Shown: piece after piece, positions 12,095-64,000 of the stretch
How positions within the stretch are numbered: the first letter of the stretch is position 1
How the letters are laid out: each line of letters opens with the position of its first letter
IMG/VR virus record: IMGVR_UViG_2721755712_000001
DNA length: 64,000 bases
From: a virus
Lineage: Duplodnaviria; Heunggongvirae; Uroviricota; Caudoviricetes
Direction: 5' to 3' (one strand)
Made by a program: the position numbers and the translations under genes
Notes under the pieces: model-generated
The model's database searches: none
Told to the model about the DNA's origin: nothing
Seen by the model: the letters and a program-made list of their open reading frames with translations, nothing else

Positions 12095-13003
12095 ATGATT
12101 GGTAAGTTGTCTGATTCTTTGATTGAAAATAAATACAACGAATTTAGAGAAGAAATATCTTTACTTTTTGACTATTTAAATCAGATAAATGATACAACAA
12201 AGAAAAATATAAAACGTCTTCTTAAAGAAGTGGAGTATGCACAGAATCCAGATACTATTATTAATATTAATGAAACTATTAAGATTAAGTGTGGCACAAC
12301 GTTAGCTCGCCATTTATGTTCAAACCCATATACAGGTTCAACATTAGAGATAGGTAACAGCGCCATTGATTTAGAAGAAAAGATAAGATTGTGTAATACT
12401 TTGAAAAATAAACAATATCAGTGGGTTATTACTGAAGCCTATGAGTTACTGGAAGACTATATTGAGGCAATATATGTCTATACTGTATGTGTTCGAAATG
12501 ATTTATGGTCCTCAAGTGATTTTGGTAAGGTTGAAGATGATGAAATTGGGAAAAGGGAAGTTTATTACAGATTATTAAAAGCAAAAAGTAACCCATCGAA
12601 AAAAATAACTAAAATTTTCAGAAATAAAATACCTGGCTTCAAAGAGATAGAAACAAACAACAAGATTGGCAAAAACTATCGCTTTAACATCAAGCTAATT
12701 GAACTACTAAGACATACAATAGTACACAATAGTGGACGATTCAATGATACAGAAAAATTTATAAATAAGGTTTTAGATGAATCTGAAATAAACGGTAAGA
12801 AAAGAGTTATTGGAGAAAGAGCTGTTAGAAGTTACATTACTAAAGTGCAAGAAGATGATATTGTGATGCTCTTAGAAAGACCATCTGAAATTTTAGGTTC
12901 TTTTGGTGGGTATTTTAACAGAGCAAAATTTTTACTAAGTGATATTTTAGAATACTCACTAATCATTAAAGAAGAACTAAAATCATATCTAGGCAATCAT
13001 TAA
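12095..13003 (+). CDS. AT-rich hypothetical protein with HEPN-like R-x4-H motif (possible abortive-infection-type protein)
   Basis: 302 aa; strongly AT-rich and Lys/Asn/Ile-rich relative to neighbours; motif LLRHTIVHNSG (R-x4-H); own terminator. Confidence 0.3.
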   Translation: MIGKLSDSLIENKYNEFREEISLLFDYLNQINDTTKKNIKRLLKEVEYAQNPDTIININETIKIKCGTTLARHLCSNPYTGSTLEIGNSAIDLEEKIRLCNTLKNKQYQWVITEAYELLEDYIEAIYVYTVCVRNDLWSSSDFGKVEDDEIGKREVYYRLLKAKSNPSKKITKIFRNKIPGFKEIETNNKIGKNYRFNIKLIELLRHTIVHNSGRFNDTEKFINKVLDESEINGKKRVIGERAVRSYITKVQEDDIVMLLERPSEILGSFGGYFNRAKFLLSDILEYSLIIKEELKSYLGNH

Positions 13004-13004
13004 C

Positions 13005-13034
13005 AAAAAAGGGGCCGAAGCCCCTTTGGATTTT
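13005..13034 (+). terminator. Rho-independent terminator
   Basis: A-tract, GGGGC-CGAA-GCCCC hairpin, then TTTGGATTTT, immediately after the 12095..13003 stop. Confidence 0.75.
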
Positions 13035-55259: not shown

Positions 55260-56150
55260 TTATGCCGGTAAAGCAATTTCTAACGGTTTATCCAAAGGTT
55301 GTTTGTCGAATGCCAGCAGTGGCAGCGTGTCAGGCAGCCGACGACCAAAGTCAGGGTTTCGGTACACACCATACAACGGAGACGTAAAGCTCAGGTTGTG
55401 AATGTCCTTGAGCAGCTTCACAATGCTGGCCTCGTCCACCAGACTGTCGGCAATGTCCTGAATCGTCGTGCCACGATTCCGCCCAGCTTTTGCCAGGGAA
55501 CTGTTCTTGTGGTAGTCCGCTACCAGATCACGCAGTGCACGGCGACGACGAGACTCGCTCATTGCGAACAACTCTTTGACGATCGCCTCGTTATCACCCG
55601 GGTCGGAACGGAAATGGCGCTGGAATACACGCAGTGCACTTTCATAGCTCTTCGGTCGCTCAGGGCGGATGAACTTAAACCCTGCTTTCATGGCGAAGGG
55701 ATTGTATTTGCTCATCGAGGACTGGATCTCAATGATTGGCCGGTCATGCATCCTGCTAACCAGGTTAATCATTCGATAAGAGACGCCTACGCCACGATAC
55801 TGAGTATCCACAACTGAGCGACTGATCACCGCAAAGTTGTTATTCACGTACCGACCCCAGTACTGGTTAGCCACGGTGGTATTAGTGGTTGGTTTCAACT
55901 TAGGAAACATGCGGTGGCGAGGTGCCAACAGTAGTTTCGGGTAAGCCATAACCACGACGCCCACCAGACGGTCATCAAGTTCGCAGCGATAGTAAGTTGG
56001 CGCGAAAGGTTTGCCGTCTGTTTTGTAGTGAAGCGACTTAAGAGCGTGCCAGTCCTCTACAGTTCCCTTTGTGACAGTCATTCGCTCCAGAAAGTCCAGA
56101 TGACGCGGAAACTCTTCAGGGCGGTAGCGTTTAATGATGATGTCCGTCAT
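55260..56150 (-). CDS. hypothetical protein with GNAT-like acetyltransferase motif
   Basis: 296 aa; VVDTQYRGVGVSYRMINLV (Q/R-x-x-G-x-G) and NPFAMKAGFKFI resemble GNAT motifs A and B; about 130 extra C-terminal residues. Confidence 0.35.
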   Translation of the reverse strand: MTDIIIKRYRPEEFPRHLDFLERMTVTKGTVEDWHALKSLHYKTDGKPFAPTYYRCELDDRLVGVVVMAYPKLLLAPRHRMFPKLKPTTNTTVANQYWGRYVNNNFAVISRSVVDTQYRGVGVSYRMINLVSRMHDRPIIEIQSSMSKYNPFAMKAGFKFIRPERPKSYESALRVFQRHFRSDPGDNEAIVKELFAMSESRRRRALRDLVADYHKNSSLAKAGRNRGTTIQDIADSLVDEASIVKLLKDIHNLSFTSPLYGVYRNPDFGRRLPDTLPLLAFDKQPLDKPLEIALPA

Positions 56151-56812
56151 AAATGAACCTCATCATGACTACCATTGTGATATTCCACCTTCACGCGTTC
56201 TTTGTAGTGCTTGGTGATCTGCATATCCGGGCGCAGCGCGTTCTTCAGGTCTTCGTGAGTCGTCGCCACCATTACCGTCGCACCAACCTTTCGAGCGGCA
56301 CGCTGGAGGTTAGATGCCACAACCTGAGCGGTTACACGGTCTAGAACAGCCCCGAACTCGTCAGCAGCCCACACTTTAGCGCCTGACTCAATCAGTTTGG
56401 CAATCTTGAGACGATATTTCTGGCCGTCTGACATTTCAGAAGGCTTGCGAACAAACAGATATGCATCGTTCAGACCAGCCATAGATAACAACCCAAGCGC
56501 ATCACTGGTCGTTTTGCCCAACTGATCGATGACGTTAACCTCATTATCGAAGGTAAAATCATCGATGGAGGCTACAGACAGCCCTTCATCCTTCATCTGT
56601 CGTTGCAACTCGCGCAGCACAACGGATTTGCCGGATCCGGATTGGCCGGTGATGTACACCACATCGCCCTGCTTCACTTCCAGCTCCAGATTGTCGTAAA
56701 GCGTCCACTCTTTTTCGTCCAGGCCAAGCCCGAACGACTCAGCGATTTCCAACGTGCGCGTGGTTTTATTTACGCGTGTCTGAAACGATACGTTGATGAT
56801 GTATTTGCTCAT
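56147..56812 (-). CDS. small ABC-type P-loop ATPase
   Basis: 221 aa; Walker A GQSGSGKS, signature-like LSDGQKYRLKIAKL, Walker B KVWAADEF, H-loop-like ATTHED. Confidence 0.6.
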   Translation of the reverse strand: MSKYIINVSFQTRVNKTTRTLEIAESFGLGLDEKEWTLYDNLELEVKQGDVVYITGQSGSGKSVVLRELQRQMKDEGLSVASIDDFTFDNEVNVIDQLGKTTSDALGLLSMAGLNDAYLFVRKPSEMSDGQKYRLKIAKLIESGAKVWAADEFGAVLDRVTAQVVASNLQRAARKVGATVMVATTHEDLKNALRPDMQITKHYKERVKVEYHNGSHDEVHL

Positions 56813-57510
56813 GCAGCCATCTCCCCGGAAGAGATCTTCTCCGCATATGCCACAAATGCGTCTACCCCGCTTTCTCCTGTCATTTCTTCCATGTGGGCAA
56901 GCAAATCACCAACAACAATGGCAGAGCCAGCAGGGAGCGTTTTAAAGCCCAATACGTCGACAACACGTACTTCTTCCGCTGCAACTTCACGACTGATCTC
57001 GGTGTGTTCATCCTTCTGTCGTTTAGTTTCTTCGCCAAGATCGATAACTAGCGAGTCGGTGTCCATTTCTTCTGTCATACTGCCAACGAGAACATTCAAC
57101 TCACGCTCTTCAAAGCCGAAAACCTCGATATCGTCCAGAACAAGCGACTCAAGCTCTTTCTGTAGCTTAATTGCATCGTAATCAATGCTGGCTAGTCGGT
57201 TATCTTCAAGGCGCTTCGCACGAACCTCGTCATCACTGAGATCATCGCGAACAATAACCGGTACGCGCTCAAGTCCAGCAAAAATTGCAGCCTCACGGCG
57301 GCCGTGGCCAGTAATAATTACGTCGTTCTTATCGACCGTAATTGGCTGGTCAAATCCGCGCTTTTTAATGGCTGCGGCCAGATCTCGGATCTGCTGTTCA
57401 TCATGCTTTTTGGCATTCATCTCATAGGGAATAAGATCTGCCGGGTCGCGATATACGATTTCAAACTTTTTGGTCATTACATACGCTCCTTGTAGTAGTC
57501 GACCAGCCAC
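56809..57510 (-). CDS. ParB/Srx-like nuclease-domain protein
   Basis: 233 aa; ParB-type motif IITGHGRREAA; acidic C-terminal half. Confidence 0.55.
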   Translation of the reverse strand: MAGRLLQGAYVMTKKFEIVYRDPADLIPYEMNAKKHDEQQIRDLAAAIKKRGFDQPITVDKNDVIITGHGRREAAIFAGLERVPVIVRDDLSDDEVRAKRLEDNRLASIDYDAIKLQKELESLVLDDIEVFGFEERELNVLVGSMTEEMDTDSLVIDLGEETKRQKDEHTEISREVAAEEVRVVDVLGFKTLPAGSAIVVGDLLAHMEEMTGESGVDAFVAYAEKISSGEMAA

Positions 57511-58175
57511 ACCAGAGCCTCACCAGCGTTCTCCATTTCATTACCGGTGTTAATAGCCTGCTCTTTGATGATGTTTTTTATGGTTTCTGCAACGCGATCT
57601 GACGCATCGAAGGTTACTTTGAAGCGCATGGTCTGATGTTCCGCACCGACACGTTCGGTTTTCTCTCGTTTGTCGGTATCGACAGGCTCGTCACCGCCAC
57701 GAGACAACGCCTCCAGTGCTTCAAGGTCGATTGCAGCCTCTTTTGCTAAAACCATCGAGATTTCGTCGTCATACGGGGCGATTTCAGACAGTTGATAGTC
57801 AAGTTCTGACTGAATTTCTTCAATGAAGCGTTGCAATGCGATTTGGTCGTCTTCACCGTATCGCTCGTTGTCCACCAGTGACATCTGTTTAGCTACGACA
57901 TCGCTAATTTTGCCCACAGAAAGCACCGGAACCGTTGAAATTCCTTGCTCAATAGCAGCACGCCAGCGATGTTCGCCGCCGAGGATTTCAAAAAATCCAT
58001 CTTCAAGTTCACGAGCCAAAATTGGCTTAAAAAAGCCCAATTTTTCGATAGAACCTTTCAGTTTTTCAAAATTCTGCGCACCAACCGAATTGGTGTTCCA
58101 GGTATTCGGGCGAAGGTTGGCAACATCAACCTGCAAAATCGTGATTTTTACATCCATTTTATTGCTACAATCCAC
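57477..58175 (-). CDS. ParB/Srx-like nuclease-domain protein
   Basis: 232 aa; canonical ParB box motif ILGGEHRWRAA. Confidence 0.65.
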   Translation of the reverse strand: MDCSNKMDVKITILQVDVANLRPNTWNTNSVGAQNFEKLKGSIEKLGFFKPILARELEDGFFEILGGEHRWRAAIEQGISTVPVLSVGKISDVVAKQMSLVDNERYGEDDQIALQRFIEEIQSELDYQLSEIAPYDDEISMVLAKEAAIDLEALEALSRGGDEPVDTDKREKTERVGAEHQTMRFKVTFDASDRVAETIKNIIKEQAINTGNEMENAGEALVWLVDYYKERM

Positions 58176-58239: not shown

Positions 58240-59799
58240 ATGACTGTTCGGATTGTATCTAACGCAGTAAATGCGCTTATTTCTGGCGCAGATGACAAGG
58301 TAAAGCAAATGGTGCAACAGATGTTGAGCTACGAAGTCGAGACTGGCGACTGGAAGGGCACAAGCACGATGTTCAACTGGAGTAAAAACTCGTTCCCTGC
58401 TGGCTTTGCCAAGCCTGTAGCGGCGAACTTGAACAAGGCGGGCATCAAATGTGTTCATATCCGCAAAGACAAAGCCCCGGCGCTTGGTAAACCAAATCCG
58501 GCGGTTAACCCATTCCCATACAATCCTGATTATGCGTATCAGGATCAGACTGTGGAAACACTGGTTCGAGAGGGAATGATGATTGCGCAGATCGCTACTG
58601 GTGGCGGGAAATCTAATGTTGCCTGCAAAGCAGCTGCACGTATCGGTCGAATGACATTATTTTTAACAACCCGCTCTGTTCTGATGTTTCAAATGGCCGA
58701 AAACTTCCAGAGATCCATCGACTACCGCGCCAAAAATGGCGAACCGTGGTTAAAAGACCAAAAGGTTGGAGTCATTGGCTCGGGTGAGTTCCAGGTATCA
58801 CGACATATCAACGTCGCTACAGTTCAAACTCTTGCAAGTTTCCTCGAAGAACCACCACGCGATGCAACACCAGATAAGAAAAGCTACCACCTCAAACGTC
58901 GGGACTTGGTGAAACGCTTCCTTTCAAGTGTGTCTCTGCTTATTCTGGAAGAGGCGCATGAGTCTTCAGGTTCTAATTTCTATGACATTGCCAGATTATG
59001 TGTGAACGCAGACTATCGTCTGGCACTTACGGCCACGCCGTTCATGAAGGATTCTACAGAAGCCAACATGCGTCTGATGGCTGTGGCTGGGCGAATTGAA
59101 ATCAAAGTCACAGAAAAGTACCTGATTGATCGAGGCATTCTGGCAAAACCGTACTTCCTTTATCATAAAGTTGCCTACAAGCCAGACGAGGCCAGAATCA
59201 AGGCCGAACTTGCCAACAAACACCTCAATTTTAGAGTTGGTATGAGCACCGCCTACCAAAAGGCTTATCAGTTGGGGATCGTGTATAATTTGGGACGTAA
59301 CGAGGCCATTGTGCGCGAAGCATTGCTCTATAAGCAACATTCTCTCAATTGCATGACTCTGGTTCGTCTTAAACGCCACGGGCAAATCCTGATGGAAATG
59401 ATGAAAGAGTCCGGCCTTAGAGTTGACTTCATTTATGGGGAATCGAACCAGTCGACAAGGCAAGCAAAGCTGAACAGTTTAGCGTCTGGTGAAATAGATG
59501 TTTTAATAGGCTCGACTATTCTGGATGTTGGTGTTGATGTGCCAAGCGTTGGTGCGGTCATTCTTGCTGGTGGTGGGAAAGCAGAAGTTGAAATGAGACA
59601 GCGTGTCGGTCGTGGCTTACGAGCCAAGAAGAATCAGGCAAACGTGTGTTTTATCACTGATTTCATTGACATTAGCAACAAATACCTGTTGTCTCACTCT
59701 TATGAGCGAAAACACATCATCGACACCACACCTGGCTTTGCAGAAGGTGTATTGCCTATTGATGGCGCATTCGATTTTGGAGTTCTGAAACGAGATTAG
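58240..59799 (+). CDS. superfamily 2 helicase (DEAD/DEAH-like)
   Basis: motif I ATGGGKS, motif II LILEEAHE, motif III LTATP, motif VI QRVGRGLR. Confidence 0.75.
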   Translation: MTVRIVSNAVNALISGADDKVKQMVQQMLSYEVETGDWKGTSTMFNWSKNSFPAGFAKPVAANLNKAGIKCVHIRKDKAPALGKPNPAVNPFPYNPDYAYQDQTVETLVREGMMIAQIATGGGKSNVACKAAARIGRMTLFLTTRSVLMFQMAENFQRSIDYRAKNGEPWLKDQKVGVIGSGEFQVSRHINVATVQTLASFLEEPPRDATPDKKSYHLKRRDLVKRFLSSVSLLILEEAHESSGSNFYDIARLCVNADYRLALTATPFMKDSTEANMRLMAVAGRIEIKVTEKYLIDRGILAKPYFLYHKVAYKPDEARIKAELANKHLNFRVGMSTAYQKAYQLGIVYNLGRNEAIVREALLYKQHSLNCMTLVRLKRHGQILMEMMKESGLRVDFIYGESNQSTRQAKLNSLASGEIDVLIGSTILDVGVDVPSVGAVILAGGGKAEVEMRQRVGRGLRAKKNQANVCFITDFIDISNKYLLSHSYERKHIIDTTPGFAEGVLPIDGAFDFGVLKRD

Positions 59800-59801
59800 T
59801 T

Positions 59802-60080
59802 ATGAGCGAAAAGAAAACAACTTATTGCCAGGTGGCATTGTCTGATAAGGCCAATGAAAAACTTGGAAAATTCCAAATAAAACTCAAAGAGAAAAAAATC
59901 AAGATGTCTAAGGCTGAAGTTATCAATGCCATTCTGGAGACGATGACTATGGCTGAATTTGACAAAGTCACATCTGCCGTTGGGGTTTCCGCTAAGACGC
60001 GTGAGAAAATCATGCGCATCTATGAAAACTCCAATATGACAAAAAAAGATCTAGAGGAAATACTGAGCAGGTTGCCGTAA
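59802..60080 (+). CDS. hypothetical small protein
   Basis: 92-aa Lys-rich ORF coupled to the helicase gene. Confidence 0.4.
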   Translation: MSEKKTTYCQVALSDKANEKLGKFQIKLKEKKIKMSKAEVINAILETMTMAEFDKVTSAVGVSAKTREKIMRIYENSNMTKKDLEEILSRLP

Positions 60081-60145
60081 CATTTCATATTTACCCCCTA
60101 TCTACTAATTCTATGATGTGCTCACTTGTTAGAAAGGAGCACATC

Positions 60146-60712
60146 ATGAGTTGGTTAAAAGAATTATCATTTGTTGACACCACTGGCGCTAAGAAAAATC
60201 ATTCTTTCTGGAAAGTCAGCGATCCTTCTGATTTTCTTGTTGGTGCTAATGCTGCTTTTGAATTGCTTAACTTTTATCAACGTTATCCAGAAATGAAACA
60301 CAGTCCACTCCTGTACAGAATAACAAACGATATGAATAGGTCTGGTTTATTATCAAGTGAGTCAGCGAAAGGCTTTTTTAGCAAAATTACGCCTCACATA
60401 TCATTCGATGCAACAAACGAAATTGATTATCTATCCACGAAATCTCAAGAACAATTATCTGTACCACCTGAGAAAAAAGAAAGACGAATTGCCAGCATTG
60501 AAAATATATCGAAAGAGCTTCGCACAACAACGTTGAGGCTGCTGAACTTTCTTACGCTGCTTAATTGGATAGATGATCAAACATTGATTCCATCAACAGA
60601 TGCGTTGGATAACAGAGTCCTTAGGCTGAACAAAAAATCGCAATTTGGTTTTGTGTTCACCAAAAAAGGTGAAGATTTAATCAAAAGAAAATATAGATTA
60701 TTGAATGATTAA
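60146..60712 (+). CDS. AT-rich hypothetical protein
   Basis: start placed at MSWLKEL after AAAGGAG; the track ORF begins at 60113; low-GC cargo-like composition. Confidence 0.45.
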   Translation: MSWLKELSFVDTTGAKKNHSFWKVSDPSDFLVGANAAFELLNFYQRYPEMKHSPLLYRITNDMNRSGLLSSESAKGFFSKITPHISFDATNEIDYLSTKSQEQLSVPPEKKERRIASIENISKELRTTTLRLLNFLTLLNWIDDQTLIPSTDALDNRVLRLNKKSQFGFVFTKKGEDLIKRKYRLLND

Positions 60713-61001
60713 TAGTCTACATGCAGGTGTATGAGAGCACCTGCATGTGACATTCATCACATTTTTGAATGTATATACCTTCGGCTGAAAAAGATCTTGA
60801 TAGGCTGAATGATATTTGTAGGCTTCGCCTCCGAAGAAATTCGGAGGATATATGCGACAATTTATAAAAACGTGTGACCTAAGAAATATAGTAGATGATA
60901 TTGCATGTGATGAAATTAGCAAAAAAGAGAAGAACAAAAACGCCAATTAACGCTATCTACCTATAAATCTGAAGAGTTCAATAGGATGCATATCTGAAAC
61001 A

Positions 61002-61037
61002 CGCCCTCGACAATACCAAAAAGATTTGTCGAGGGCG
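61002..61037. terminator. hairpin terminator downstream of the lipoprotein gene
   Basis: 10-bp inverted repeat CGCCCTCGAC / GTCGAGGGCG with 16-nt loop. Confidence 0.45.
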
Positions 61038-61096
61038 TCGGGCTTTCCCTATGTCTGAACGATTAAATTTTACAGCAATTAAATATTTTGTATATG

Positions 61097-61897
61097 TTAT
61101 TCTTCTGGTGGCACGACAAAATCATCGAGCTTATTCTTTTCGTCTCGAAGCAACTTGATTTCTTCTTCTGTTATACATTTGTCATAATCTGTTTGTTCAG
61201 AATGGCACAGTGTAACCGCGAATGGATAGCCGGTATAAGACAGTCCCCTAACAGGTTCTAGTTCACCGTTGTCTTTTTTCCTAAATTTGTAAAAGTCAGG
61301 AGTGTCATAATTGGTGACGCTAACAAGAGCATATTTATCATTTTCTCTTGCATACACTTCACTAACACCTCTCGATTCGCCCAACTCTCTACTCACATAT
61401 GTCGAATCACTTGCAGCATCAAACACAGCCTGACCTAATGGAGTTTTTTTTAAATCATCTATTTTCTCTTTTTCCTTCCTGATTTTAGATTCGTTTTCCA
61501 GATAAAGTTTCACACCGTTTTCTTTGCATGCTAGATTTTGGCGTTCAAAACGTAATCGTTCTCTTGCCGAGTTGGTACTTTTATCCATTGTAACGAATAC
61601 AATCGGGTTACGTTCACGAACATCAAAGATGTGCGCATTGAATGCGGTCGCACCTGTATAGGCATTCAAGACGTTTTTGCCATTCACCTCTCCACATACC
61701 ATATATGAATAGCTATTTTCACCTAACTGAATAGCTCGCATATTCGTGAACCGACCAGCATCAGGATCTAGCAGTGTAGAGCGAATATCCTTTTCAACTA
61801 GATCTATGGCTCGCTCTTCGTCAGAATCACAACCTGTTAATAGTAAAGCCGCTATTAACAATGCTAATGAGTATTTTTTATTCACCCCATTCTTCAT
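61097..61897 (-). CDS. AT-rich lipoprotein
   Basis: 266 aa; signal peptide with lipobox LLLTGC (ALLIAALLLTGCDSD). Confidence 0.6.
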   Translation of the reverse strand: MKNGVNKKYSLALLIAALLLTGCDSDEERAIDLVEKDIRSTLLDPDAGRFTNMRAIQLGENSYSYMVCGEVNGKNVLNAYTGATAFNAHIFDVRERNPIVFVTMDKSTNSARERLRFERQNLACKENGVKLYLENESKIRKEKEKIDDLKKTPLGQAVFDAASDSTYVSRELGESRGVSEVYARENDKYALVSVTNYDTPDFYKFRKKDNGELEPVRGLSYTGYPFAVTLCHSEQTDYDKCITEEEIKLLRDEKNKLDDFVVPPEE

Positions 61898-61999
61898 GAA
61901 ACTTATTCCATAATCAATTTTTGGTGGAATGTACGGTTAGTCTGTCTACGCATCATAGAGATGTATATAATGACCAAAAAAGACTTAAAAAGGTAGACT

Positions 62000-62521
62000 A
62001 TGGTTAAAGACATCACCTACGGCATACCGGCTGAAGTCTGGCCGCGAGACTACGAACATGCTGAAAACATACTTATGTTCTGGCGGAAGAACAACATTCC
62101 TGTAAGAGTCACGCTTGAAGACGGTCAGGTGTTTTGCATGTACGTTCAGGGGACAATGCCTTCCCGCAATAAGCTAGATTTATGCCCGCTTCCATATGAT
62201 AAAGAAAATCGTATAAGACTCCCACTTGAGCGCATTAGCACAATTGAATCAGGTGTAATCGATGGCATTGCTCGCGAGTTCAAAGGTAGGCTAACAATAC
62301 ATCCAGACTATGTTGACAATCAGCCATCACGCCGTGACTTTTTTGCGATATGTCGCAAGGCTTATCAAAACGACCAATCTATAAGGGTCTACATGACAGA
62401 CGGTCGTGAAATAGAAGGGGTGTCAAGAGGCGTTGATGCTTGCCAGGTCACTCTTAAGTTAGAAGACGGCAGAAAAATACTTGTTTTCTTCGATTGGGTT
62501 GAACGAATCCTTCCATTTTAA
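62000..62521 (+). CDS. hypothetical protein with internal tandem duplication
   Basis: 173 aa; two similar halves (VRVTLEDGQVFCMYV and VTLKLEDGRKILVFF); followed by a terminator. Confidence 0.45.
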   Translation: MVKDITYGIPAEVWPRDYEHAENILMFWRKNNIPVRVTLEDGQVFCMYVQGTMPSRNKLDLCPLPYDKENRIRLPLERISTIESGVIDGIAREFKGRLTIHPDYVDNQPSRRDFFAICRKAYQNDQSIRVYMTDGREIEGVSRGVDACQVTLKLEDGRKILVFFDWVERILPF

Positions 62522-62533
62522 ATCTATAAGGGT

Positions 62534-62564
62534 AATAACCGGCTAAGCCCGGTTATTATTTTAC
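62534..62564 (+). terminator. Rho-independent terminator
   Basis: TAATAACCGG-CTAAGC-CCGGTTATTA hairpin followed by TTTTAC. Confidence 0.65.
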
Positions 62565-62816
62565 ATGCCATTCGTTTAAAACTCTTTCAATGTCACTCTG
62601 TATAAATATATAAGGTTAAAAGCCCGAATTGATTATTTATTTAGGGAACACCTTCGACGATCTCGCTTTTATTTCTAGGACTTTCATCCCTGCAGAAAAT
62701 TTAAAAAAAATACTTGCAATCTTTTTTCACGTATCGATAATTGAACTCGTCGAAAGCGAGCTAGCTAACGACAGTAAAAAATAAATTCATTTTAATTTTT
62801 CGTAAGGATGTCCATC

Positions 62817-63467
62817 ATGACTAACATTATCATTTCTAAAAAGTCCATCATTGAAGCTGCTGCCATTGTATCCGACGAGCTGCGCGAAAAAGCAGATCTG
62901 GCAACTCAAACATATAACGAACATTATAAAAATGGTACGCACACAAAAGCAGACAAAGCAAATATGCAAGCTGCAACCACTAAACTTGCTTACTTCATCA
63001 ACAACGTTGTAAACGCTGTAGAAGACGAAAAATTGTGCTCTGTTTTCTACTATGCGATCAAAGCAAGCAAACAAGCGCCAGAAGTATTTTTCCGTGATGC
63101 AATGACTAATAGTTATTCTCTGGAAAAACTGGTTTATCTGGTTAAATCCATTAAAGCTGGAAAGTGTGTTTATTCCGTCGCTGATATGTCCGGATCTCGT
63201 GTATTCGCATTAATCGATATGATTAACGACGAGATCGACACGTTCACCAATGGCGCTGTTTTCGATTTAATGAATGAAGCGAAAAAAGCGTGCGAAATTA
63301 AATTGGACGCTGGCTATACTCAAGCCAACCAGTTGATCAATCTTTGCGAACGTCTTGGACTTGTTGAAAAAGTCAAAGGAGCTGGGAGCGCGAAAGCTGG
63401 TACTCAGCAATATCGCTTCATTAAAAATGATTTCTATAACTATCTGGCTGATGCTTTCAAAGCGTAA
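62817..63467 (+). CDS. hypothetical protein
   Basis: start taken at the second ATG with better spacing from TAAGGA; the track ORF begins at 62808. Confidence 0.45.
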   Translation: MTNIIISKKSIIEAAAIVSDELREKADLATQTYNEHYKNGTHTKADKANMQAATTKLAYFINNVVNAVEDEKLCSVFYYAIKASKQAPEVFFRDAMTNSYSLEKLVYLVKSIKAGKCVYSVADMSGSRVFALIDMINDEIDTFTNGAVFDLMNEAKKACEIKLDAGYTQANQLINLCERLGLVEKVKGAGSAKAGTQQYRFIKNDFYNYLADAFKA

Positions 63468-63480
63468 TTAATGGAATCTT

Positions 63481-63501
63481 GCGCCCACTATGGGCGCTTT
63501 T
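63481..63501 (+). terminator. hairpin terminator/attenuator
   Basis: GCGCCCA-CTA-TGGGCGC followed by TTTT, between two co-oriented genes. Confidence 0.6.
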
Positions 63502-63514
63502 AAGGAGCTTAATC

Positions 63515-63745
63515 ATGTTTATTCTTATCGCTGGCGTTAACGTACGTAATGAATATTTTGTCAATCGCATCGCTGGGATCGCTGGTTACGCTGGGCGCGC
63601 AGTCGAGTTTATCGATGAAACGACGCGCAAAATTGACTTATTGAGCGACCAGGAGCGAAAAAAAGCAGACGTGAATGACGCTGATATATTTTTAATGTTA
63701 AAAGCGTTTGTAGAAATGGGATTTGAAATCAGTTTACATAAATAA
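63515..63745 (+). CDS. hypothetical small protein
   Basis: start at MFILIAGVNV preceded by TAAGGAG; the track ORF start at 63479 would overlap the upstream terminator. Confidence 0.45.
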   Translation: MFILIAGVNVRNEYFVNRIAGIAGYAGRAVEFIDETTRKIDLLSDQERKKADVNDADIFLMLKAFVEMGFEISLHK

Positions 63746-63751
63746 AATCGA

Positions 63752-63775
63752 GCGCCCACTATGGGCGCTTTTTTC
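63752..63775 (+). terminator. Rho-independent terminator
   Basis: second exact copy of GCGCCCACTATGGGCGC followed by TTTTTT. Confidence 0.65.
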
Positions 63776-63798
63776 GTTTCCAATACTTCCACCATAAC

Positions 63799-63821
63799 GC
63801 GCCAATGATGGCGCTTTTTTT
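63799..63821 (+). terminator. Rho-independent terminator
   Basis: GCGCCA-ATGA-TGGCGC hairpin followed by TTTTTTT. Confidence 0.6.
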
Positions 63822-64000
63822 ATTGTCTTTGACTCAAGCCAACAACATAAAAATAAGCGCCAAAATAACGCCATAGACGCGCTTTTATATCCTTACCAGT
63901 ACATACCCATTACTTAGCGCATTAACGCGCTTAAATCGCGTTATATTGCGTTATGGTGTATGGTTAATCATTGGCTTTTATTCTTGCTATGTGATCCGCG

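Follow-up and report, generated by a model that had tools for sequence, protein, structure and literature searches.

The 64,000-nucleotide (nt) stretch of viral DNA analyzed here (IMG/VR record IMGVR_UViG_2721755712_000001; "the window" below) carries near its right end a run of AT-rich genes, positions 60146 to 63821, downstream of a helicase gene. Comparison with relatives suggests that this region is probably the accessory/early end of a phage-plasmid of the Cyrano/pLF82 type and that it is made up of three independent units rather than one block of cargo. The first unit would be a recombination-prone slot between a gene for a 92-amino-acid (92-aa) protein and a fljA-like gene; most relatives have an exported protein there, and here the slot would be occupied by a 188-aa gene and, in reverse orientation, a lipoprotein gene that has a promoter and a terminator of its own. 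The second would be a backbone gene whose FljA-family product, to judge from that family, would bind an mRNA leader and block its translation. The third would be an operon silent in lysogeny, with its own sigma-70-like promoter and a conserved leader, comprising the gene for a 216-aa protein (p216), zero to two small-gene cassettes, and tandem intrinsic terminators.

On sequence grounds, the window is assigned to an SSU5/pHCM2-type phage-plasmid, that of Escherichia coli LF82 ("Cyrano"/pLF82), because of its near-identity to that element and the plasmid-only occurrence of related sequence. The final 6 kb matches Escherichia phage Cyrano (OV696614) and the E. coli LF82 plasmid (NC_011917) along its entire length at 99.1 to 99.2% identity, and related sequence was found in 728 plasmids and in no E. 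coli chromosome. Salmonella phage SSU5 is ~79% identical to the same 6 kb. Some copies of this enterobacterial phage-plasmid are filed in Bacillota metagenome-assembled genome, Gemella, and Finegoldia records, most likely through contamination or mis-binning. In deposited records, the genes of the region are labeled "hypothetical," "putative membrane lipoprotein," and "transcriptional regulator / repressor of phase-1 flagellin" (database annotations). The region is known sequence from a known family and is mostly ordinary; what goes beyond existing annotation is a predicted tandem Hfq-like fold, the backbone status of the fljA-like gene in nonflagellated hosts, and an invariant hairpin that brackets cassettes. 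The low G+C content of the genes after the helicase, noted in an initial annotation of this DNA, is borne out: the region has 38.7% G+C, compared with 46.8% in the remainder of the window, and none of 565 segments of equal length elsewhere was as GC-poor (lowest, 40.8%).

The same annotation had read the region as one cargo cluster, and this view is already contradicted by the comparative data. In 88 related loci anchored on p216 (5 genomes, 3 phages, and 80 IMG/VR contigs), the order helicase, 92-aa gene, fljA-like gene, p216 gene is kept, and the interval from the 92-aa gene to fljA is a variable slot. Homologues of the helicase were found in 81 of the 88 loci (a count limited by flank length), of the 92-aa gene in 82, of the fljA-like gene in 85, and of p216, the anchor, in all 88; median ratios of nonsynonymous to synonymous substitution rates (dN/dS) were 0.02, 0.07, 0.105, and 0.064, respectively. 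The fljA-like and 216-aa genes are therefore conserved backbone of the SSU5 family, under purifying selection. Homologues of the 76-aa gene (43/88), the 188-aa gene (23/88), and the lipoprotein gene (8/88) were less frequent.

Transcript levels in LF82 were taken from a published RNA-seq table (PMC9928086, S1 Table), which gives log2(fpkm+5), where fpkm is fragments per kilobase per million, with a scale floor of 2.32. The conditions were stationary LB (lysogeny broth; BLB), three others (B1, B6, and MB1), and macrophages at 6 h (MB6). In that order, values were 6.8, 9.0, 9.9, 8.9, and 8.7 for the 92-aa gene (CYRAN_117); 4.8, 8.0, 9.2, 9.3, and 8.7 for the lipoprotein gene (CYRAN_115); 4.2, 7.2, 7.0, 8.1, and 8.0 for the fljA-like gene (CYRAN_114); 2.5, 2.8, 3.1, 3.6, and 5.6 for the 216-aa gene (CYRAN_113); and 2.3, 3.0, 3.5, 4.4, and 4.6 for the 76-aa gene (CYRAN_112). 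These levels indicate that the lipoprotein and the FljA homologue are expressed in lysogeny. CYRAN_113 and CYRAN_112 stayed near the floor and went up only where capsid and tail genes rise (the capsid gene rises in MB6 only). The 216/76-aa operon behaves like a lytic-cycle unit, and the silence of both its genes in the lysogen means that they do not serve in lysogenic conversion.

The FljA homologue and its target

The 173-aa product of CYRAN_114 (positions 62000 to 62521, plus strand) matched the Pfam family PF03614 (Flag1_repress, repressor of phase-1 flagellin) over profile positions 1 to 170 of 170, with 269.9 bits against a cutoff of 24 (E = 1e-80), and can be classed from this match as a full-length, orphan member of the FljA family. 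It is the only protein of the region to which homology assigned an ordinary function. The initial annotation had described it as two similar halves. By sequence, the repeat is marginal (half against half by blastp, E = 0.047 over 14 aa; by profile-profile comparison, E = 0.036, in register across 58 columns), but it is clear in an AlphaFold2 model built with 22 homologues (mean predicted local distance difference test [pLDDT] score, 82), in which a 12-residue helix and five strands occur twice (H19-30/E34-84 and H112-123/E127-172). Each unit has the arrangement of the Sm/Hfq-like fold, an N-terminal helix followed by a strongly bent five-stranded beta-sheet. The tandem unit in the model makes the description correct in the form of a tandem Sm-like fold, and the protein is predicted to consist of two Hfq/Sm-like domains in tandem. 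It differs from Hfq/Sm-like proteins in that both domains lie in one chain and in that the Hfq profile score is subthreshold: residues 122 to 164 matched Hfq with 19.9 bits (cutoff, 27) and LSM with 15.2 bits (cutoff, 23.4). A sequence search of the PDB returned nothing significant, and no FljA relative with a solved structure was found by sequence. A predicted terminator, AATAACCGG-loop-CCGGTTATT followed by TTTT (positions 62529 to 62562, plus strand; −15.5 kcal/mol, z = −3.46), follows the gene and is conserved in relatives.

Members of the FljA family block translation of fliC mRNA, a posttranscriptional mode of action (PMC2652032). Family membership, the Sm-like fold of the model, and lysogenic expression make an RNA-binding translational repressor the most likely function of the homologue. 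In flagellated hosts (E. coli, Salmonella, and Enterobacter), the obvious target of such a protein would be fliC, and the outcome would be less flagellin; the gene is equally conserved in nonflagellated hosts, and therefore another target is possible, as well or instead. CYRAN_114 resembles FljA of the Salmonella fljBA operon and the FlkB/FljA proteins of E. coli flagellin islets and pBSSB1 in its PF03614 match, its length, and its invariant residues in both halves. Those relatives are linked to a second flagellin gene (fljB, flkA, flmA, or fljB-z66) or to an invertible promoter; CYRAN_114, unlike the characterized FljA proteins, is a phage-plasmid backbone gene conserved in nonflagellated hosts, and its neighbors are the lipoprotein gene and the 216-aa gene.

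Several observations tell against flagellin repression. A fljA-like protein is encoded by 830 PLSDB plasmids and is intact in 821 of them, and 403 of the 830 are from Klebsiella (341) or Yersinia (62), with the Yersinia records listed being Y. pestis. Neither Klebsiella nor Y. pestis is known to make flagella. With half of the carrier plasmids coming from nonmotile Klebsiella and Yersinia, the RNA target of the protein becomes uncertain. Two Klebsiella phage lineages differ at proportions of 0.18 for nonsynonymous (pN) and 0.78 for synonymous (pS) changes in this gene, indicating that selection on it was maintained between them. Among the fljA-like flanks of pLF82, Cyrano, SSU5, and pJN2-26, no linked flagellin gene is annotated. 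Because LF82 is a motile, flagellated strain, fliC repression in it, if any, would be incomplete.

Most of these points, together with the backbone status of the gene (dN/dS of ~0.1 across the 85 loci), the Hfq-like fold of the model, and an identity of only ~40% to proteins named phase-1 flagellin repressors, favor an alternative in which the homologue is an RNA-binding regulator of the phage-plasmid's own transcripts or of other host RNA and does not repress flagellin. Candidate targets would be the leader of the 216-aa operon or the invariant hairpin with its U-run (a 3' module of the type bound by Hfq). We take this alternative seriously while considering it somewhat doubtful. The match to the FljA family is full length and very strong, the residues shared without change by the phage clade and the chromosomal repressors lie in both domains, and the proposed targets remain candidates only. 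When the window was searched for a possible self-target or decoy resembling the fliC leader of E. coli K-12, only chance matches of 9 to 12 nt were returned, so there is no mimic that would point to a self-target. Movement of phage-plasmids between motile and nonmotile hosts could also keep a fliC repressor under selection. No functional study of fljA on SSU5/pHCM2-type elements was found in the literature searched. Translational repression remains our preferred function, and we place roughly even odds on fliC versus another phage or host RNA as the target because there is no partner flagellin, identity to named repressors is ~40%, the gene is carried and selected in nonflagellated hosts, the window lacks a fliC-leader mimic, and no published test of the gene was found.

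The p216 operon, its signature hairpin, and the small-gene cassettes

The third unit begins with a control region (positions 62633 to 62775, plus strand) that is conserved in relatives and contains the block ATTTATTTAGGGAACACCTTCGA, a promoter-like sequence, and a leader. A promoter scan placed the sigma-70-like promoter, TTGCAA-16-GATAAT, at 62714 to 62741; the conserved leader has a small stem, GTCG...CGAC, in which one compensatory G:C-to-A:T double change was seen among 15 aligned relatives. The 216-aa gene (CYRAN_113; positions 62817 to 63467, plus strand) is the most conserved of the region's genes, with 83 to 87% protein identity across Escherichia, Salmonella, Klebsiella, Enterobacter, Citrobacter, and Cronobacter. 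In its model (pLDDT, 81.7), a helical bundle at the N terminus precedes a C-terminal winged helix, whose recognition helix and wing are the most invariant part of the protein, and a DNA-binding role may be supposed from this fold. The only family assignment was PHROG 1513; a PDB sequence search gave nothing significant, and Foldseek against viral models gave no match at an E value of ≤0.001. We rejected a RepL-type lytic initiator as a candidate because the protein has a generic winged helix only, with no further family or fold support.

Downstream of this gene lies a signature hairpin, GCGCCCACTATGGGCGC, which is present in the window as two exact copies, at 63481 to 63497 and at 63752 to 63768. 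Both had been reported, with the second placed one position too far, at 63753. The whole 108-kb plasmid has the same two copies and none further. Chance repetition was rejected, as only ~0.11 matches are expected even when up to 3 mismatches are allowed. A dispersed repeat of the repetitive extragenic palindrome or miniature inverted-repeat transposable element (REP/MITE) type was rejected with two copies only in 108 kb, and an integron-like attC system was rejected on the grounds of no integrase nearby, an invariant stem, and a single locus. Copy 1 (−13.2 kcal/mol) begins 13 nt after the stop codon of the 216-aa gene and is followed by TTTT and then by AAGGAG, the Shine-Dalgarno sequence of the cassette gene, CYRAN_112 (76 aa; positions 63515 to 63745, plus strand; phrog_1585), which belongs to one of two alternative families found at this place. 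Copy 2 with its TTTTTT (63752 to 63774, plus strand; −15.5 kcal/mol, z = −4.15) is the predicted operon-end terminator and is terminator-like on the minus strand too. The third, related hairpin reported at 63799 is also present (GCGCCA-ATGA-TGGCGC, 63799 to 63814); with TTTTTTT it extends to 63821 on the plus strand (−10.7 kcal/mol), would form a second tandem terminator, and occurs in 73 relatives. The earlier description of a T-run after each hairpin holds for the second and third, with 6 to 7 T; after copy 1 the run is limited to TTTT, which leads straight into AAGGAG. The hairpins at 63752 and 63799 passed an intrinsic-terminator scan (GC-rich stem-loop, U-run, and location downstream of a stop codon), and the folds likewise agree with the terminator-like character first ascribed to the hairpins. 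They look like intrinsic terminators, and the last copy of the signature hairpin and hairpin 3 would stop transcription ahead of a noncoding, repeat-rich region.

The repetition is no local duplication; it proved to be a family-wide signature that brackets swappable cassettes. All 79 protein-anchored relatives for which downstream sequence exists have the hairpin after p216; it starts 7 to 13 nt past the stop codon in 77 of them and 50 and 262 nt past it in the other two. One copy was found in 11 of these loci, two in 62, and three in 6. The exact 19-mer is present in 94 IMG/VR stretches, and in nearly all a p216 homologue adjoins it, including homologues only 48 to 62% identical. Open reading frames (ORFs) between copies belong to two families only, one of 67 aa (A; 46 instances) and one of 75 to 76 aa (B; 42 instances), in the combinations none, A, B, A+B, and B'+B, the last being two diverged 75- to 76-aa copies. 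These states are mixed within p216 clades, even among near-identical p216 genes, and in one-copy elements the hairpin directly adjoins the sequence that other elements have after their last copy. Immediately 3' of internal copies stands TTT(T)AAGGAG; after the last copy, 87 of the 88 loci have a T-run, usually TTTTT(T)CGTTTC, with hairpin 3 next. The repeated unit of ~35 nt contains a Shine-Dalgarno sequence and no promoter.

The simplest reading is that the hairpin is the terminator of the p216 operon and that, since every cassette sits behind a hairpin copy, recombination between copies would bring about the gain, loss, and exchange of the small genes. A further hairpin copy would arise with each insertion, and cassette exchange would account for the duplication of the hairpin. 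The arrangement recalls the PeSL ("promoter-early stem-loop") cassettes reportedly described by Arbiol et al. in 2010 as mediating modular shuffling in T4-type phages, in that a short repeated stem-loop flanks small ORFs that differ between collinear relatives and the copy number tracks the ORF number. It differs in that the repeat combines a terminator with a Shine-Dalgarno sequence and lacks a promoter, and so is not of the PeSL type, and in being confined to one locus per genome and two cassette families in a temperate siphovirus phage-plasmid.

Two sets of relatives show further arrangements. IMGVR_UViG_2529293139_000001, in which p216 is identical, has two diverged 75/76-aa cassettes with three hairpin copies and, between the fljA-like gene and the fljA terminator, an extra small ORF with a signal-peptide-like start; the extra ORF and the double cassette suggest that both junctions are active insertion points. 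In two distant relatives (p216, 48% identical), the hairpin and T-run are repeated two or three times in tandem with a 44-nt period immediately after p216, an amplification of the terminator without a cassette gene.

Some features sit uneasily with a plain terminator. Copy 1 has four T only; among 50 unique sequences, conservation is 98.9 to 99.7% in the stem, 78% in the coding DNA before it, 67% in the spacer, 75% in the loop, and 57% in the flank downstream, and a stem invariance of ~99% goes beyond the needs of terminator function alone; and no compensatory stem variants were found among the 50 sequences. The palindrome, GCGCCCA-N3-TGGGCGC, could therefore be primarily a DNA or RNA recognition site, either an operator for the winged-helix protein or a site of cassette exchange. 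The stem does not change even in relatives with only 48 to 62% identity in p216, its spacing from the p216 stop codon is fixed, and cassette junctions are always marked by a hairpin; p216 is itself most invariant in the part that would contact DNA, and hairpin 3 and more GCGCC-containing motifs cluster downstream. We nevertheless consider a recognition site unlikely as the primary role. Terminal copies all have a canonical T-run at the operon end, the loop is free to vary or flip as a terminator predicts, no recombinase gene is adjacent, binding by p216 is putative, and homogenization of the copies through recombination could be enough to explain the invariance.

A bolder proposal, which we rate as distinctly improbable, joins this possibility to the FljA homologue. 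The hairpin would be a recognition element for p216 on DNA, or for the FljA homologue on RNA as hairpin plus U-tail, and would link control of the silent operon with a built-in site of gene capture and swapping. FljA would then be a phage-plasmid posttranscriptional regulator later borrowed by chromosomal flagellar phase-variation systems, not the reverse.

The terminator reading accommodates a further feature of these palindromes. Loops occur as reverse-complement pairs, CTA/TAG in the signature hairpin and TTGT (27)/ACAA (10) and TCAT (16)/ATGA (10) in hairpin 3, and a palindrome farther downstream, TAACGCG-CTTAAAT-CGCGTTA (63923 to 63943), has a 7-nt center that is the reverse complement of the one in pLF82 (ATTTAAG). 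This suggests that palindromes in this family often undergo inversion or template switching; inversion of the loop would be neutral for a terminator. Past the terminators, a consensus scan found two overlapping terminator-like hairpins on the minus strand (63856 to 63880), and the palindrome at 63923 to 63943 marks the start of ~600 nt of noncoding, repeat-rich DNA, most of which lies beyond the window end. Its repeats are a 10-nt tandem, AGCGCGTTTT (1 to 4 copies), several GTGATCCGCG-like motifs that contain GATC, and an inverted repeat centered around TCACATAATCACA. The noncoding region is a candidate origin, operator, or packaging-related site.

The variable slot and its lipoprotein gene

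The left border of the first unit is the 92-aa gene (CYRAN_117; positions 59802 to 60080, plus strand; phrog_1466), a conserved backbone gene directly 3' of the helicase. It was listed as a moron, 12-fold over background, from LF82 RNA-seq (PMC9928086). It is among the highest-transcribed genes of Cyrano in the lysogen and is conserved family-wide, with no function assigned.

The slot itself spans 60081 to 61999 here and is truly variable, ranging from ~100 to 1,900 bp between the 92-aa gene and fljA. A lipobox ORF was found in 53 of 77 slots; 47 of these encode an unrelated 140-aa lipoprotein of the SSU5_122 type and 6 the Cyrano type. Other slots hold a 196- to 204-aa protein with a signal-peptide-like N terminus. 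The alternative slot lipoproteins had no PADLOC match. In the window, the first slot gene encodes the 188-aa protein (CYRAN_116; positions 60146 to 60712, plus strand; 35.3% G+C), a variable cargo gene with weak transcription in LF82. Its only family is phrog_13473, and the sole PADLOC match of its product was SspC at 12.5 bits. Right after it, a terminator-like hairpin, ACATGCAGGTG-N8-CACCTGCATGT (60719 to 60748, plus strand), can be read from the sequence; the consensus scan did not score it because no T-run follows.

The lipoprotein gene (CYRAN_115; positions 61097 to 61897, minus strand; phrog_20234/2320) encodes 266 aa and agrees with the oppositely oriented lipoprotein, lipobox LLLTGC, of the initial annotation. 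The translated N terminus, MKNGVNKKYSLALLIAALLLTGC|DSDEE, carries a lipobox of the form [LVI][ASTVI][GAS]C at the end of its signal peptide, and lipidation is predicted on this basis. Residue +2 is Asp here and Lys in more distant homologues; by the classical rule, Asp at +2 favors retention of a lipoprotein in the inner membrane. The N-terminal domain has the motif DPxS..F...VCGEVNGKN..GAYTG. Full-length relatives were found in SSU5-like elements only, while the N-terminal domain matched 228 small proteins, many with lipoprotein-like N termini; a Pfam scan of ten of these small relatives gave no family, and a PDB sequence search with the lipoprotein gave nothing significant. Downstream of the gene, on the minus strand, a perfect inverted repeat, ACGCCCTCGACAA/TTGTCGAGGGCGT (61001 to 61038; 13-bp arms, 100% complementary, 12 nt apart), is a probable terminator.

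Morons, in the concept of Juhala and Hendrix, are reportedly genes with their own promoter and terminator inserted between backbone genes of temperate phages. The lipoprotein gene shares with them its inverted orientation, terminator-like hairpin, low G+C content, patchy distribution, and transcription in the lysogen; as a patchy, lysogen-expressed gene with its own signals, it is an ordinary gene of the moron type, and its lysogenic transcription makes it a classical one. The fljA-like and p216 genes, being backbone genes, do not have this character. Application of the concept to Cyrano has been published, and the lipoprotein gene, which in LB fell below those authors' 5-fold cutoff, was not listed as a moron (PMC9928086). 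Its treatment as cargo in the initial annotation is in agreement with the variable slot, the homologues in 8 of 88 loci, and transcription in the LF82 lysogen.

The lipoprotein may have its site of action in the cell envelope and possibly counter incoming phage. Infection-blocking prophage lipoproteins are known, namely, Llp of T5, Cor of phi80/N15, and Ltp of TP-J34. CYRAN_115 is like them a temperate-phage lipoprotein expressed in the lysogen, and it differs from them in being much larger, with no sequence or family similarity found. It matched no defense or exclusion family in PADLOC, which speaks against an antiphage role, nor did the FljA homologue, p216, or the 76-aa protein. Above-threshold matches to Pfam, NCBIfam, or PADLOC were likewise absent for the 92-, 188-, 216-, and 76-aa proteins and the lipoprotein. 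The suggestion of exclusion or host-interaction functions survives in its second half, as FljA is a family of host-interaction regulators, and nothing relevant to exclusion was found in PADLOC. That the whole block is horizontally acquired cargo for superinfection exclusion or host interaction, punctuated by duplicated terminators, has in its favor the lowest G+C content of the window, the patchy lipoprotein and 188-aa genes, and lysogenic expression of the lipoprotein and fljA-like genes, but it is very unlikely given that the fljA-like, p216, and 92-aa genes are conserved backbone, that p216 and the 76-aa gene are silent in lysogeny, that the hairpins are family-wide, and that no protein matched a defense or exclusion family.

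Other features of the window and significance

An Rfam scan of 59500 to 64000 (E value of ≤1) gave chance-level matches only (MicX, 21.5 bits, against a gathering score of 75). Elsewhere in the window, a 302-aa ORF (12095 to 13003, plus strand) occupies the kilobase with the lowest G+C content (29.3%), has no Pfam or PADLOC match, and is followed by a bidirectional terminator-like hairpin, AAGGGGC...GCCCCTT (13009 to 13026). It looks like recently acquired cargo and is possibly a defense candidate. Upstream of the helicase and divergent from it, a four-gene run on the minus strand (55260 to 58175) encodes two proteins with ParB-like N-terminal domains, an ATP-binding cassette (ABC)-type ATPase, and an annotated ATPase/acetyltransferase-like fusion. 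This run, which SSU5 and pJN2-26 also conserve, may form a separate functional module.

Phage-plasmids of the SSU5/pHCM2 type occur commonly in clinical Enterobacteriaceae, as the 830 PLSDB plasmids with a fljA-like gene illustrate. If flagellin repression is true, carriage would silently alter motility, H-antigen, and innate immune recognition in E. coli, Salmonella, and Enterobacter; if not, the RNA-regulatory role of the FljA family would be broader than its name. Conservation in nonflagellated Klebsiella and Yersinia suggests a nonflagellin role, for which the predicted tandem Hfq-like fold offers a handle. The hairpin-bracketed cassettes, in turn, would be a small natural example of a regulatory stem-loop serving as a gene-exchange junction in temperate phages.

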